From: an uncultured Pelagibacteraceae bacterium
Lineage (GTDB): Bacteria > Pseudomonadota > Alphaproteobacteria > Pelagibacterales > Pelagibacteraceae
Assembly: GCA_902572345.1 (NCBI GenBank)
Contig: CACGEW010000006.1
Span: forward strand, 15,231-79,230
Length of the DNA: 64,000 bases
Direction: 5' to 3'
This document shows positions 1,380-36,103 of this stretch, piece by piece. The notes under the pieces were generated by a model, which saw nothing but the letters and a program-made list of their open reading frames with translations, was not told the origin of the DNA and searched no databases. A program made the translations under genes and the position numbers. Every line of letters starts with the position of its first letter. The stretch's first letter is position 1.

Positions 1380-1410
1380 TTGACATTTTAAATTTTTCAA
1401 TCATTATAAA
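1380..1410 (+). promoter_or_regulatory. Candidate sigma-70 promoter for the riboswitch-gcvTHP transcript
   Basis: A perfect TTGACA sits at 1380-1385, followed 17-19 nt later by ATTATAAA (1403-1410). The predicted start falls at the 5' edge of the riboswitch P1 stem (1414). Confidence 0.4.
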
Positions 1411-1413
1411 GAT

Positions 1414-1556
1414 GTAACGGGAGAGACCAATTATTTGGCGCCGAAGGAGCAACCACCCCGGAAACTCTCAGGCAAAAGGACCGTTACCATAATAACTCTG
1501 GAAAGCAGGCTCTGGCCTCACCGAAGGATTAAATCTCTCAGGTACAAAGACAGATG
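1414..1556 (+). promoter_or_regulatory. Tandem glycine riboswitch (two aptamers)
   Basis: Aptamer 1 (1414-1487) has a GTAACGG/CCGTTAC P1 stem enclosing GGAGAG...GCGCCGAAGGAGCAA...CTCTCAGGCAAAAGGAC. Aptamer 2 (about 1496-1556) reads CTCTGGAAAG...CACCGAAGGATTAA...CTCTCAGGTACAAAGACAG. Both match the conserved glycine aptamer core. The element is locally GC-rich and sits directly upstream of gcvT. Confidence 0.85.
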
Positions 1557-1575
1557 GGGTTTAAAGAGAGTTATT

Positions 1576-3065: not shown

Positions 3066-5932
3066 TGATTGACGATAATTCAAAAGAATTTATTAAAAGA
3101 CATATTGGTCCTTCTGAAGAAGAGCAATCTAAGATGTTGAAATACGTTGGACATGAGTCACTCCAAGATCTTATGGAAAATACTGTACCGGAAAAGATCT
3201 TGTTAAAAGAAGAACTTAAAATTGATCAGCCAATGTCAGAAAATGATGCTTTGAAAAAATTAAAATCTATTTCTAAAAAAAATAAGATCTTTAGAAATTT
3301 TATTGGAATGGGATATTATAATTCTATTACACCCAATGTAATATTAAGAAATATTTTAGAAAATCCTGGATGGTATACTTCTTACACACCTTACCAGCCT
3401 GAAGTAGCGCAAGGTCGACTTGAAATGCTACTAAATTTTCAACAATCAATAATCGACTTAACAGGTATGGATATTGCTAATGCCTCTTTATTAGATGAAG
3501 CAACTGCAACAGCAGAAGCAGTAGGATTAAGCCAGAGACTAGATAAGACTGACTCAAAAAAAATATTTATTTCAAGTAATTGCAATCCTCAGACGATTGA
3601 TCTTATTAAAACAAGAACAAATCCTTTTGGTTTAGAACTAATTATAGGAAATGAAAAAACAGAACTTACAAAAATTGATGAAGATTTAATTTGTGGAGTT
3701 CTATCATACCCGGGTACTTTAGGTGAGATAAATGATCCAAGTGAAAGTATTAGTCAAATACATAAAAAAAATGGAAAGGCAATTTTGGTTTGTGATTTAT
3801 TGGCGCTAGCTAGATTAAAAACTCCAGCAGAACTAGGTGCTGACATCGCTGTAGGTAGTGCCCAAAGATTTGGTATCCCAATGGGATATGGTGGTCCGCA
3901 CGCAGCATTTTTCGCAACTAAGGAAGAGTTTAAACGATCAATGCCTGGAAGAATTATAGGTGTATCAAAAGATAAACACGGAAAAAAAGCTTACAGACTT
4001 TCTTTACAGACTAGGGAGCAGCACATTAGAAGAGATAAAGCTACAAGCAACATTTGCACTGCTCAAGCTTTATTAGCTATCATTTCTGCTGCTTTTGCAA
4101 TTTATCATGGACCAGAAGGAATATTAAAAATAGCTAATAGAACTTCTAAATTAGCTAAAATTTTTGCTGATAATATTAAAGCTGGTGGTTACAATATTTT
4201 ATCAAATCATTTCTTCGATACCGTTACGATTAAAACTAATAAAAAAACAAATTCTATTTATGATGCTGCATTAAAAGAAAATATTAATTTAAGAAAAGTT
4301 GATGAGGAACATTTATCTGTTGCTTTTGACGAAGCAAAAAAACTTGATGACGTTAATATATTATTAAAAATATTTGGAATTTCTAAAATAATAAAACAAG
4401 ACGTTAAGGTAGAGCTAGATAATCTTCCAAAAAATCTATTAAGAACTTCAAAATACTTAACTCATCCAGTTTTTAACAAATATCATTCTGAAACTGAAAT
4501 GCTCAGATATTTAAAGAAACTCGAAGATTGTGATATTGCTCTAAATAGGTCAATGATAGCTTTAGGATCTTGTACGATGAAACTCAATGCAACAGCTGAG
4601 TTAATTCCTATTACTTGGAAAGAGTTTTCACTTCCACATCCTTTCGTCCCTACAAATCAAATGGAAGGATACAAAATTCTCTTTAATGATTTAATAAATG
4701 ATTTAAAAGAAATTACAGGATATGACGCAGTCTCTTTGCAGCCTAACTCTGGGGCCCAAGGAGAATATGCAGGTCTTATGACAATAAGAAAATTCCATAA
4801 GAATAATAAACAAGAAAATCGTAACGTTTGTCTTATCCCAGATTCAGCTCATGGAACTAATCCAGCCAGTGCTCAAATGTGTGGGATGAAAGTGGTTGTT
4901 GTCAATTGTGACGATGATGGAAACGTTGACATAGACGATCTTAAAAATAAAGCTGAAAAATACTCAAAAGATTTAGCTGCATTAATGGTTACATATCCCT
5001 CTACTCACGGAGTATTTGAGGAAAAAATCATTGAAATTTGTGATGTTATTCATAAGCACGGTGGGCAAGTTTATATGGATGGAGCTAATTTAAACGCACT
5101 TGTGGGTATTGCCAAACCGGGAAAATTTGGACCTGATGTTTGCCATATTAATTTACATAAAACATTCTGCATACCTCACGGTGGTGGCGGACCAGGAATG
5201 GGCCCAATTGCTTGCGCTAAGCATTTAGCTGATTTTTTACCGACACATGAAATCATTAAAGAAGCTGGTCCTAAGAATGGAATGGGAGCTGTCTCAGCCG
5301 CTCCTTGGGGAAGCTCAAGTATACTACCAATATCTTGGATGTATATTAAGATGATGGGTGCGGAAGGGTTGAAAAAAGCTTCACAAGTTTCAATATTAAA
5401 CGCTAATTACATTTCAAAAAAATTATCTAAAGATTATAAAGTTCTTTATACTGGCAAGAATGGCAATGTCGCGCACGAATGCATAATTGATATTCGTCCA
5501 ATTAAAGCAAGCTCAGGGATCTCGGAAGAGGATCTAGCAAAAAGATTAATTGATTTTGGTTACCACGCACCAACTATGTCATGGCCTGTTGCTGGTACAA
5601 TTATGATTGAGCCAACAGAAAGTGAAAATTTAGAGGAAATAGATAAATTTTGTAATGCATTCATTAAAATTAAAAAAGAAATTAATCTGGTTGAATCGTC
5701 TAAATTTGACAAAATAGACAATCCACTTAAAAATGCTCCTCATACATATGTTGAACTAGCTTCAACCGAGTGGAAACATGCTTATTCAAGAGAAGAGGCA
5801 GCTTTTCCAACTGAATACGTAAAAAATAATAAATATTGGGCTCCTGTAGCAAGAGTAGACAATGTATACGGTGATCGTAATCTTGTATGTTCATGTCCTT
5901 CTATGGATGAATATAAAGATGAAGCTGCATAA
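3065..5932 (+). CDS. gcvP: Glycine dehydrogenase (decarboxylating), single-chain P protein
   Basis: The 955-aa product has motifs PGWYTSYTPYQPEVAQGRLE and NLHKTFCIPHGGGGPG (PLP lysine region). Its start overlaps the gcvH stop (ATGA-type overlap). Confidence 0.95.
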   Translation: MIDDNSKEFIKRHIGPSEEEQSKMLKYVGHESLQDLMENTVPEKILLKEELKIDQPMSENDALKKLKSISKKNKIFRNFIGMGYYNSITPNVILRNILENPGWYTSYTPYQPEVAQGRLEMLLNFQQSIIDLTGMDIANASLLDEATATAEAVGLSQRLDKTDSKKIFISSNCNPQTIDLIKTRTNPFGLELIIGNEKTELTKIDEDLICGVLSYPGTLGEINDPSESISQIHKKNGKAILVCDLLALARLKTPAELGADIAVGSAQRFGIPMGYGGPHAAFFATKEEFKRSMPGRIIGVSKDKHGKKAYRLSLQTREQHIRRDKATSNICTAQALLAIISAAFAIYHGPEGILKIANRTSKLAKIFADNIKAGGYNILSNHFFDTVTIKTNKKTNSIYDAALKENINLRKVDEEHLSVAFDEAKKLDDVNILLKIFGISKIIKQDVKVELDNLPKNLLRTSKYLTHPVFNKYHSETEMLRYLKKLEDCDIALNRSMIALGSCTMKLNATAELIPITWKEFSLPHPFVPTNQMEGYKILFNDLINDLKEITGYDAVSLQPNSGAQGEYAGLMTIRKFHKNNKQENRNVCLIPDSAHGTNPASAQMCGMKVVVVNCDDDGNVDIDDLKNKAEKYSKDLAALMVTYPSTHGVFEEKIIEICDVIHKHGGQVYMDGANLNALVGIAKPGKFGPDVCHINLHKTFCIPHGGGGPGMGPIACAKHLADFLPTHEIIKEAGPKNGMGAVSAAPWGSSSILPISWMYIKMMGAEGLKKASQVSILNANYISKKLSKDYKVLYTGKNGNVAHECIIDIRPIKASSGISEEDLAKRLIDFGYHAPTMSWPVAGTIMIEPTESENLEEIDKFCNAFIKIKKEINLVESSKFDKIDNPLKNAPHTYVELASTEWKHAYSREEAAFPTEYVKNNKYWAPVARVDNVYGDRNLVCSCPSMDEYKDEAA

Positions 5933-31316: not shown

Positions 31317-32456
31317 ATGAATTCACTAGGAATTAATAAACCAAAAAAAGAAACTAAAGTGGTTGTTGCAATGTCTGGTGGGGTTGACTCATCCGTAGTA
31401 GCGGCTCTTATGAAGGAAGAAGGTTATGACGTTACTGGCATAACATTAAAATTATATGATGATAGCAAGCAATCAAAAGAGGGCAGACAATGTTGTGCTG
31501 GACAAGATATTTTAGATGCTAAAAGGGTATCAGAGAAAATAAATATTAATCATAAAATTTTATTTTATCAAAAAAAATTTAAATCAGAAGTTATAGACTC
31601 TTTTATAGATAGCTATGCAGCAGGTGAAACACCGATACCATGTGTTCAATGCAATCAAACAGTAAAATTTAGAGATTTATTCATATATGCAAAAGAACTA
31701 AAAGCTGATGCGCTTGTAACCGGTCATTATGTCTCTAGAGTTCAAGTTAATGGACACGCTAATATGTACAGGGCTAAAGATCAAAATAGAGACCAAAGTT
31801 ATTTTTTATTTAGCACTACTCAAGAACAGTTAGATTATCTTAGATTTCCATTAGGAGAAATTGACAAATCAGAAACAAGGTTAATAGCAGAAAAATTAAA
31901 ATTAAATGTTGCTTCAAAACCAGATAGTCAAGACATTTGTTTTGTTCCTAATGGCGATTATGCTTCAGTAATAAAAAAATTTAGACCTGAGTCATTTAAG
32001 CCTGGAAAAATTCTAGATCTTCAAGGTAATACATTAGGAGAGCATGACGGAATTATTAATTATACGATAGGCCAAAGGAAAGGAATCAAGATTGCTAGTA
32101 GTAAACCATTGTATGTTGTTAATATAAACGCCGAAAACAACACTATAATTGTTGGTAGCAAAGAATGTCTTGAGGTTAAAGAAATTAAACTAAGAGATTT
32201 AAATATCTTAGGATCCACTGAAGAATTTAATGAAATTATAAATATCAAAGTTAGATCAACAGGGAGACTGTTAAAAGCTAAAATAAAAATTGAAAAAAAT
32301 TTAGCTGATGTGGAAATTTTAGACAAAGAAACAGGAATTTCTCCAGGACAAGCCTGCGTATTTTATTCTAAAGACAATGTTGGGGATAAAGTGTTGGGAG
32401 GCGGATGGATTCTTAAGACTTATAATAAGAATTTATCCACCAAGTTAACAACCTAA
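31317..32456 (+). CDS. mnmA: tRNA 2-thiouridine(34) synthase
   Basis: It has the PP-loop [13 protein letters not shown] plus CCAGQD, TGHY and RDQSYFL motifs. I placed the start at MNSLGINKP. The tracked start at 31209 would overlap the DUF3553 gene on the other strand. Confidence 0.9.
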
Positions 32457-32513
32457 ATTATTGCTCGTTAAAAGTGATAACAATTTTTTAAAGATATGAT
32501 TTAATTTAATTAA

Positions 32514-32655
32514 TTAAGAGGCAACTCTTAACTGACCAATTAAGGAAAAACCGAGAGGTTCAAGCTTAAAGGGCAGAAAGGTGAACCTAGTAGCGCTAGA
32601 ATAGTTCATCGGGACGGCTTGGCGGTAGCGCCTACAACGACGAGCCAAAACTACT
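32514..32655. ncRNA. Unclassified GC-rich structured RNA candidate (orientation unresolved)
   Basis: The region lies between convergent genes. Bases 32551-32646 hold 53 G+C of 96 nt by hand count, against a roughly 30% background. I see a hairpin TTAAGAG-GCAA-CTCTTAA (32514-32531), a stem AGGTTCA/TGAACCT (32556-62 with 32582-88) and a stem GCGCTA/TAGCGC (32593-98 with 32626-31). No coding potential is apparent. Confidence 0.4.
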
Positions 32656-32683
32656 AAATTTCTGGGCGAAAGCCTAGAAATTT
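32656..32683 (-). terminator. 12-bp hairpin with GNRA/UUUC loop overlapping the stop codon of the 32682-33383 gene
   Basis: The sequence AAATTTCTGGGC-GAAA-GCCTAGAAATTT has one G-U pair. On the minus strand it is followed by AGTAGTTTTGG. It could instead be the 3' hairpin of the adjacent RNA candidate. Confidence 0.45.
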
Positions 32684-33383
32684 ACGTGGTTCTTCTCCAA
32701 AAAAATCTTGTCAATACGTAAAAAAATATTACTCCAACAAAATAGTTCCACTCTAACGCATGTTTGAAGTGTGTATTCCCTTTATCTAAAAGTATAGGTA
32801 AACTTAACACAGCTACAATAGCCAAGATTGAAACCAATAAAGCTTTCAAAATTAAAACTTTTTTATTTATTAAATTTGTAATTTTATCTTTAATTTTAAA
32901 CAAGTGATAGACAAGAACTCCTTGAGCAATAAGTTCAAATATTATGAACAATAATAATATAACTCGTCTCATTAGTTTATAAATTTGTATATCAAATTTT
33001 ATTCCAAGAAAAATGGAGTGTATTGCTAAGAAAATAGCAGATAAAATTCCAAAAGTTTTAAACTTGTGATCGAAATTAGTAGAATTTAACTTATTGATTA
33101 AATTATTATTATTTTTCCAATAGTAATATAGCGTTATCGCTGTAATTATCATTGCTGGCTTGAAAATTAAATATTGAGGAAATGTTCTTGAAGCCCTACT
33201 AATTGAGAGACTGCCGTCCAAATAAGGTATGGAGAAACCAGACCGACCAATTTGATCTACTGTAAAAAAAGTATTCTCTAATAATTGAGGATTTTGAGAA
33301 ATAAATAGACAAAGGTTTATAGCTATTAAAGGTAAAAAAAATATCCATAAACTCAACTTTCTTATTTGAGTTATCTCATTCAT
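32682..33383 (-). CDS. Integral membrane protein, unknown function
   Basis: The 233-aa product has about 6 predicted TM helices. No family was recognised. Confidence 0.5.
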   Translation of the reverse strand: MNEITQIRKLSLWIFFLPLIAINLCLFISQNPQLLENTFFTVDQIGRSGFSIPYLDGSLSISRASRTFPQYLIFKPAMIITAITLYYYWKNNNNLINKLNSTNFDHKFKTFGILSAIFLAIHSIFLGIKFDIQIYKLMRRVILLLFIIFELIAQGVLVYHLFKIKDKITNLINKKVLILKALLVSILAIVAVLSLPILLDKGNTHFKHALEWNYFVGVIFFYVLTRFFWRRTT

Positions 33384-35963: not shown

Positions 35964-35982
35964 GGTTGTATTTTGAGTCTCA

Positions 35983-36015
35983 AAGTGAATCAAAAGTGAA
36001 TCAAAAGGTGAACAT
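35983..36015 (+). repeat. Three tandem 11-nt units (AAGTGAATCAA x2, then AAGGTGAACAT)
   Basis: The direct repeat is read straight from the sequence. A fourth AAGTG core occurs near 36034. It lies in the 140-nt spacer upstream of the CADD-like gene. Confidence 0.6.
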
Positions 36016-36103
36016 TCTAATAGCTCAACCATAAAGTGTGGATAATTTTTTTGTTTAATCCAATGGTTTTTTTTAATACGCTTTAGATAACAAAGGAGTC
36101 ACA

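Follow-up and report, generated by a model that had tools for sequence, protein, structure and literature searches.

An IMES-2 small RNA gene in the spacer between mnmA and a convergent membrane-protein gene of a marine SAR11 bacterium

The question raised by this locus is what kind of element fills a large and G+C-rich spacer of 225 nt in a genome of SAR11, which is more numerous in the sea than any other bacterial clade. The window analysed here is the whole stretch of 64,000 nt from an uncultured Pelagibacteraceae bacterium (assembly GCA_902572345.1, contig CACGEW010000006.1, positions 15,231 to 79,230). Within it the spacer (32457-32681) runs from the stop codon of mnmA (32454-32456) to the stop of a convergent open reading frame (ORF, 32682-33383) that codes for a predicted membrane protein. 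A preliminary description of this DNA had proposed that the spacer holds an unclassified structured RNA. We have found that the element is a full-length gene of IMES-2 (RF02035), a known and curated Rfam family, i.e., the RNA is real but not new, and we describe here its fold, its likely transcription unit, the genomic contexts in which it appears and what its two identical loops might do.

Family assignment, conservation and fold

The whole window was scanned by cmscan against Rfam 15. Only two matches were above threshold, a glycine riboswitch at 1408-1493 and the following:

32507 to 32648, + strand: IMES-2 RNA core (RF02035), 152.4 bits against a gathering score of 54.7, E 7e-40, model positions 1-141 of 141

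The match is not truncated and its score is nearly three times the gathering score. Every highly conserved position of the consensus was matched letter for letter, including among the unpaired ones the GGCAAC tetraloop, CGAGAG, the GCaGAAAg junction, loop 3 (AGUAGCGCU) and loop 4 (GGUAGCGC), and the conserved unpaired nucleotides were invariant in the 80 SAR11 genomes described below. Twelve homologs among the most divergent ones recovered from metagenomes scored between 128 and 156 bits against the same model. All the features of sequence, structure and origin that define the family were found here, i.e., the model score, the fold of four hairpins with GCAA and GAGA tetraloops, the conserved unpaired nucleotides with two GUAGCGC loops, and the origin from a marine SAR11-like lineage. 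The label “unclassified” has therefore to be dropped; the preliminary description had stated beforehand that a confident match to a known family in an Rfam scan would mean a real but not novel RNA, and such a match is what the scan gave. Taken as a whole, the locus is very probably best explained as an IMES-2 small structured RNA gene of marine SAR11 (Pelagibacterales).

The name IMES-2 comes from “identified in marine environmental sequences”. The family was described in 2009 by Weinberg and colleagues and by Shi and colleagues from marine metagenomes and metatranscriptomes. It was reported to be exceptionally abundant in ocean RNA samples and among the most abundant SAR11 transcripts, and it was later reported from the SAR11 strain HIMB114. 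To our knowledge the biochemical function of the family is not established; this is the real question about IMES-2 and it is beyond the reach of sequence analysis. A full-text literature search on IMES RNAs and SAR11 small RNAs returned nothing relevant, the primary papers of 2009 lying outside the searched text, and the part available to us of a Red Sea in-situ study of transcription start sites, mapped to strain HTCC7211, lists only protein-coding genes and no non-coding start sites. Since IMES-2 has long been in Rfam, routine annotation would label the element and no new discovery is involved.

The size and composition of the spacer were as they had been presented before. By a crude gene call it ranks third by size among the 73 gaps of the window, the median gap being 8 nt, so that it is indeed very large for this genome. 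The stretch 32551-32646 contains 53 G+C in 96 nt (55.2%), which makes the earlier hand count exact, against 31.4% over the whole window, and it ties the window maximum when G+C is measured over a sliding 96 nt (mean 31.3%, sd 6.8%). The glycine riboswitch (ca. 1411-1545) was likewise correctly named as the only comparable non-coding G+C island, being the sole other non-coding stretch with at least 50% G+C; the remaining stretches of such composition lie elsewhere.

The preliminary description had suggested collecting homologs, and this was done in two ways. A SAR11 set of 80 loci was retrieved through the neighbouring membrane-protein gene (73-88% amino-acid identity), independently of the RNA sequence. 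All of them came from Pelagibacteraceae or Pelagibacterales genomes and all carried IMES-2, with position and orientation unchanged and with 91-98% nucleotide identity. Across 79 SAR11 species the mean identity was 95.5% for the RNA core and 97.2% for the terminator hairpin that follows it, against 76-79% for the DNA of mnmA and 76% for that of the membrane-protein gene in the same species. IMES-2 has thus changed much less than the genes beside it. The second set came from a pattern scan of marine metagenome contigs, which provided ca. 119 further copies with identities down to 77%, under accession prefixes that we take to be those of ocean surveys, and one G+C-rich false positive (L159). No copies of IMES-2 were found in IMG/VR (searched by pattern), in GenBank phages or among the PLSDB plasmids, and a mobile or viral origin, tried as a candidate against these three collections, was rejected.

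The fold of the RNA core consists of four hairpins, one of them interrupted:

32514 to 32531, + strand: P1, 7-bp stem TTAAGAG/CTCTTAA with a GCAA tetraloop; 100% of cells paired, 4 of 7 pairs compensatory
32532 to 32576, + strand: P2/P2b, interrupted long hairpin, with outer pairs between 32532-32544 and 32565-32576
32549 to 32560, + strand: P2b, inner stem AACC/GGTT with a GAGA tetraloop; 3 of 4 pairs compensatory
32580 to 32610, + strand: P3, 8-bp stem GGTGAACC/AGTTCATC with a 15-nt loop TAGTAGCGCTAGAAT that contains an invariant GUAGCGC; 8 of 8 pairs compensatory
32616 to 32646, + strand: P4, stem of nine positions GGCTTGGCG/CGACGAGCC with a 13-nt loop GTAGCGCCTACAA that contains the second invariant GUAGCGC; 4 of 9 pairs compensatory

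Covariation, also proposed in the preliminary description, was measured on 70 diverse copies, aligned with MAFFT and not fitted to any structure. When the Rfam structure was placed over this alignment, 94.3% of the cells were paired and 26 of the 39 base pairs had double-sided (compensatory) changes, involving 307 cells. None of 500 shuffles reached the observed measures of pairing or covariation, and a control in which the partners were slid by 1-3 columns gave at most 46% pairing. RNAalifold, run de novo, found five helices as in the Rfam structure, with 24 of 36 pairs compensatory, and the Rfam helices also come out when the single sequence is folded to its minimum free energy. Outer P2, with compensatory changes at 7 of its 11 pairs, is separated from P2b by a conserved GAAA/CAAG internal loop, and P4 includes one G-A mismatch that was kept in all 70 sequences. 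The four-hairpin fold (P1, P2/P2b, P3 and P4) is therefore held by compensatory changes. The strand of the RNA is the + one because the frequent G-U pairs are possible only there, and the folding energies and the U-runs found after the 3' hairpin in other lineages have the same polarity: the + strand of 32512-32690 folds at -65.5 kcal/mol against -41.0 ± 4.0 for shuffled sequences (z = -6.2, 0 of 200 as good) and the - strand with z = -3.0. The proposal of a structured RNA thus stood, with 26 of 39 pairs covarying, 95% sequence conservation and a + strand polarity.

The individual stems that had been read from the letters fared unequally. The 7-bp hairpin with a GCAA loop at 32514-32531 is exactly helix P1. 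The stem AGGTTCA/TGAACCT (32556-32562/32582-32588) is complementary in this sequence and is not a conserved helix: among diverse homologs only 61.6% of the cells pair, the covariation is no better than in shuffles, and the ten SAR11 genomes in which the pairing is lost are precisely those with a change from G-C to C-G in P3. Its halves belong to P2b and P3 and the stem is an accidental alternative pairing. The complementarity of GCGCTA and TAGCGC (32593-32598/32626-32631) is real, but it forms no stem enclosing a loop, as had been described, since one half lies in the terminal loop of P3 and the other in that of P4. The hairpin with a GAAA loop at 32656-32683 exists and is conserved, only that it forms the inner part of a stem that extends over 32649-32691.

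The same data bear on the simplest alternative, that there is no functional RNA here and that the spacer is a G+C-rich stretch arisen by chance with a bidirectional terminator, or else a decayed coding remnant. In favour of it, a - strand ORF of 44 codons spans 32514-32648 and the 3' hairpin would be a plausible terminator for both genes. However, an identity of 95.5% across species, against 76-79% in the flanking genes, and compensatory changes at 26 of 39 pairs do not fit a chance spacer, and only 36 of the 70 homologs keep the - strand frame open, with variable columns distributed as 26/33/34 by column modulo 3, i.e., with no 3-base periodicity. A decayed coding remnant, which the preliminary description had listed as something to check, and a protein-coding gene were both rejected on these last grounds. 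Covariation, identity and the absence of codon periodicity refute the non-functional reading, to which we give practically no credence.

Predicted transcription unit and genomic contexts

The RNA core is accompanied by three conserved elements that lie beyond the Rfam match:

32472 to 32478, + strand: conserved upstream box AAGTGAT, -35 region of a predicted promoter, 40-43 nt upstream of P1
32495 to 32505, + strand: AT-rich -10-like box TATGATTTAAT, which reads as TGnTTTAAT (extended -10-like) or as TATGAT
32649 to 32691, no strand assigned: intrinsic terminator, extended hairpin of ca. 19 bp with a GAAA loop, -23.9 kcal/mol, called on the + strand by the terminator scan

Among the 175 homologs whose sequence reaches far enough upstream, 174 have GTGAT 40-43 nt before P1, and this holds in both of the genomic contexts described below. 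Over the window AAGTGAT was no commoner than expected by chance (13 found, 13 expected) and was for that reason discarded as a general SAR11 promoter element; it may be a -35 element or the site of a dedicated regulator. It is often preceded by CAAC or CACG ca. 10 nt upstream. In the second box T32497, G32498, T32500 and T32505 were invariant in the 80 SAR11 genomes, and divergent lineages have TGATAAT or TGGTAAT at this place. Unlike these two conserved blocks, the 5 nt before 32511 vary freely, from which a start is predicted at 32507-32512. IMES-2 would start there, downstream of both boxes, and end at the hairpin 32649-32691, so that it is likely a stand-alone transcription unit of ca. 180 nt on the + strand. 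The unit is wider than the preliminary description had drawn it, extending from ca. 32507/32512 to 32691 with upstream boxes from 32472.

The 3' hairpin has the anatomy of an intrinsic terminator. It is stable, it is found directly after P4 in all 188 copies with enough sequence, and its stem changes in sequence without losing its pairing: it covaries within SAR11 Ia and its sequence is entirely different between lineages. The flanks are AAAACU and GGUUUU(U), the AAAACU after P4 pairing with the GGUUUU beyond the hairpin; outside Ia, U-rich sequence then follows in most lineages, consistent with termination on the + strand. In the window the 3' arm of the hairpin reaches into the convergent membrane-protein gene, covering its stop codon (32682-32684) and the codons next to it, and this overlap with coding sequence accounts for the degenerate U-run as well as for the very high conservation found here. 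The hairpin probably terminates both IMES-2 and the convergent gene.

Several points speak against a stand-alone unit as we have drawn it. A simple sigma-70 scan called no promoter at IMES-2, the distance between the AAGTGAT box and the candidate -10 hexamers is 15 or 20 nt, a non-canonical spacing, the U-tract after the terminator is weak in this clade (GGUUCUUCUCC), and the ends and the abundance of the transcript are predictions.

The metagenome copies allow the gene to be seen in two arrangements. About 72 of the 119 have the order of the window, i.e., mnmA, IMES-2 and the convergent membrane-protein gene, with mnmA identities down to 62%. About 37 have no mnmA and show instead a divergent tyrosine recombinase ca. 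300-500 nt upstream and an ogt-like gene that follows the terminator at once, in the orientation of IMES-2. Both contexts keep the upstream AAGTGAT box and a terminator. The recombinase has a Pfam match to Phage_integrase and scores well under the NCBIfam cut-offs for XerC/XerD; as it is 61-88% identical across contigs, the second arrangement must be old and stable. This second context was observed at positions 7478-9235 of contig L119 and at ca. 36 other metagenome loci (e.g., L099, L116, L132 and L151). Contig L119 has 26% G+C, and the likely ATG of its ogt/MGMT-like gene lies a few nt after the terminator U-run, leaving no room for a promoter of its own.

These contexts bear on whether IMES-2 could act in cis, as a structured 3' untranslated region of mnmA or as a riboswitch-like leader or attenuator of a downstream gene. 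The position of the RNA, 50 nt past mnmA and on the same strand in most lineages, even where mnmA identity is as low as 62%, would agree with the first possibility, and the same-strand genes found right after the terminator in L119 (ogt) and L073 (acyltransferase-like) with the second. However, some 37 contigs retain the RNA, the upstream box and the terminator without mnmA, to which IMES-2 is therefore not tied, and promoter-like boxes are conserved between mnmA and the RNA. On the downstream side, the next gene is convergent in the window, as the preliminary description had argued in excluding a 5' riboswitch, and in all 80 SAR11 genomes as well, and there is no conserved alternative anti-terminator pairing, the sole one proposed (AGGTTCA/TGAACCT) failing the covariation analysis. 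IMES-2 thus appears to be neither the 3' untranslated region of mnmA nor the leader of a fixed downstream gene; the second context largely refutes a role in cis, which we consider very improbable. A tRNA-related link to mnmA, a tRNA 2-thiouridylase gene, was also rejected, as the window has no tRNA or tmRNA genes and the second context lacks mnmA.

The site just after the terminator is a recurrent point of insertion of single genes (L073, L101, L122, L125, L142, L154 and L163). In L073, from the single amplified genome AG-325-E13, an ORF of 338 aa coding for a membrane protein (4699-5715) lies between the terminator and the convergent membrane-protein gene; our guess, judged on its sequence alone, is that it is acyltransferase-like. 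Several metagenome contigs contain at the same site 0.7-1.6 kb of differing extra sequence.

Three of these features go beyond the Rfam model of IMES-2, i.e., the upstream AAGTGAT box, the lineage-specific terminator whose AAAACU pairs with the U-tract, and the two genomic contexts. Together with the predicted transcript of ca. 180 nt, the twin loops and the insertion site, these details leave the classification unchanged, and may be useful for experiments on the family.

The twin GUAGCGC loops

P3 and P4 form a duplicated module with stems of matched length (8 and 9 positions). Both loops, of 13-15 nt, read (A/G)GUAGCGC followed by an A-rich stretch, and the linker between the hairpins is short (4-7 nt) in all lineages. 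GUAGCGC and the A or G that precedes it were invariant in both loops in the 80 genomes, which had been found without reference to the motif, while every pair of the P3 stem varies beneath its invariant loop. The GUAGCGC loops of the metagenome copies were fixed by the search pattern and their invariance there cannot be counted as evidence.

By analogy with known small RNAs, IMES-2 would act in trans as a scaffold or decoy for a protein. The two identical loops would offer equivalent sites to a protein that is dimeric or binds twice, and the GNRA tetraloops (GCAA and GAGA) together with the GAAA/CAAG internal loop would hold the fold compact. This is speculative and we put it forward tentatively, at somewhat less than an even chance. 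Two observations count against it besides the fixed loops of the metagenome set. No candidate binding protein was identified for IMES-2, and each loop is complementary to the other as well as to its own sequence (duplexes of -12.1 to -12.9 kcal/mol, and of -3.9 ± 2.0 when shuffled), for which reason they might instead be engaged in contacts between RNAs.

The complementarity is the starting point of an explanation in which no protein is involved. P3 and P4 would form an intramolecular kissing loop, or several molecules would assemble into dimers or oligomers, and the fold itself would be functional, for example in ligand binding or catalysis. RNA-only complexes have recently been shown for GOLLD, ROOL and OLE (PMC12286853). 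Here, the GCGCUA of loop 3 is complementary to the UAGCGC of loop 4, the predicted duplexes reach -12.1 (L3-L4), -12.5 (L3-L3) and -12.9 kcal/mol (L4-L4), with 2 of 1000 shuffles as good, the matched lengths of P3 and P4 and the linker of 4-7 nt are maintained throughout the lineages, and the two GNRA tetraloops and the conserved internal loop suggest tertiary contacts. In terms of known elements, the palindrome of loop 3 (UAGCGCUA) and the UAGCGC of loop 4, with a predicted duplex of ca. -12 kcal/mol, resemble kissing-loop elements such as the HIV-1 dimerization initiation site (DIS) with its GCGCGC loop, and P3 and P4, being adjacent and of matched lengths, could pack side by side like L2 and L3 of the purine riboswitch. 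The likeness to these HIV-1 and purine riboswitch loops is offered as a lead. Against all this, the six L3-L4 pairs never vary (6 of 6) and are uninformative for covariation, the pairing leaves the invariant 5' AGUA of loop 3 unexplained, loop 3 is GCGCUU in several lineages, where the pairing shrinks to 5 bp, and the duplex energies follow trivially from the common palindromic GCGC core. An architecture of RNA only is in our opinion unlikely. The narrower claim that the GUAGCGC loops are RNA-RNA contacts, either a P3-P4 lock or dimers and oligomers, and not protein sites is a little more doubtful still; if it were true, one of the most abundant small RNAs of the ocean would be a self-assembling particle.

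The protein scaffold, which we prefer, has also to be weighed against a base-pairing small RNA, which would use the GUAGCGC loops or another single-stranded conserved stretch as seeds for RNAs that carry GCGCUAC. A small RNA that is encoded as a separate gene, ends at a terminator of its own and has invariant single-stranded segments would suit this role, and seeds as G+C-rich as the loops would be highly specific at 31% G+C. However, the window contains no GCGCUAC target beyond the complement of one stray GTAGCGC; this motif was found three times (0.68 expected), in the two IMES-2 loops and at 3404-3410 (+). Furthermore, all 141 nt of the RNA are conserved, including junctions and tetraloops, which is far above the needs of an antisense RNA of the seed type, and the AAAACU after P4 is taken up by its pairing with the terminator U-tract and is not a free seed. 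We regard base pairing as improbable, on a par with the RNA-RNA contacts of the loops. GUAGCGC occurs twice in the 5S rRNA of Escherichia coli, where the motif is partly helical, and mimicry of 5S rRNA was set aside as probably a coincidence.

The closest functional analogs of the proposed scaffold are CsrB, RsmY and RsmZ, which are also stand-alone structured small RNAs with a short motif repeated in hairpin loops; the loops of Csr/Rsm RNAs bind a dimeric protein. The likeness is one of function only. In IMES-2 the motif is GUAGCGC and not GGA, it has two copies only, and no CsrA-like partner was identified. No Csr/Rsm family of Rfam matched the element and the GGA loop repeats are absent from it, so that it is not a CsrB/Rsm-type RNA. 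6S RNA offers another parallel, since both are abundant, single-copy and highly conserved small RNA genes, and 6S acts, as IMES-2 might, through the binding of a protein. However, 6S RNA folds into a single long and irregular hairpin, whose central bubble mimics an open promoter, whereas IMES-2 has four separate hairpins, and no 6S match was obtained in the window at E <= 0.1. The element is not 6S RNA.

Neighbouring genes and other RNAs in the window

The genes at both sides of IMES-2 are the following:

31317 to 32456, + strand: mnmA (tRNA 2-thiouridylase), upstream neighbour, with Pfam tRNA_Me_trans HUP, PRC-barrel and C-terminal domains (E 9e-75)
32682 to 33383, - strand: convergent predicted membrane protein of 233 aa, downstream neighbour (ORF)

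The start codon of mnmA was set by comparison with L073. The multi-pass membrane protein had no match in Pfam or NCBIfam. The protein collection contains at least 8000 proteins closely related to it, and among the matches listed all were at least 84% identical. It is an abundant family without described function, apparently specific to SAR11.

Other small RNAs without known function are likewise found mainly in SAR11 and marine metagenomes, i.e., the SAR11_0636 small RNA (RF01827) and IMES-1, -3 and -4. They are unrelated to IMES-2 in sequence and structure, and cmscan assigned the element to IMES-2 only. A sub-threshold match to SAR11_0636 was observed at 35964-36030 (+), with 54.2 bits against a gathering score of 67, E 1.4e-6 and model positions 1-90 of 90. 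It sits in a gap of 140 nt (35964-36103, crude gene call), 3.3 kb from IMES-2, and is probably a divergent member of that family. The glycine riboswitch occupies a spacer of 232 nt (1344-1575), where the Glycine aptamer at 1408-1493 scored 71.3 bits and a permissive scan gave in addition a match to glycine-GGAnGA (RF03166) at 1405-1557 (+), with 80.5 bits, below its gathering score of 110.

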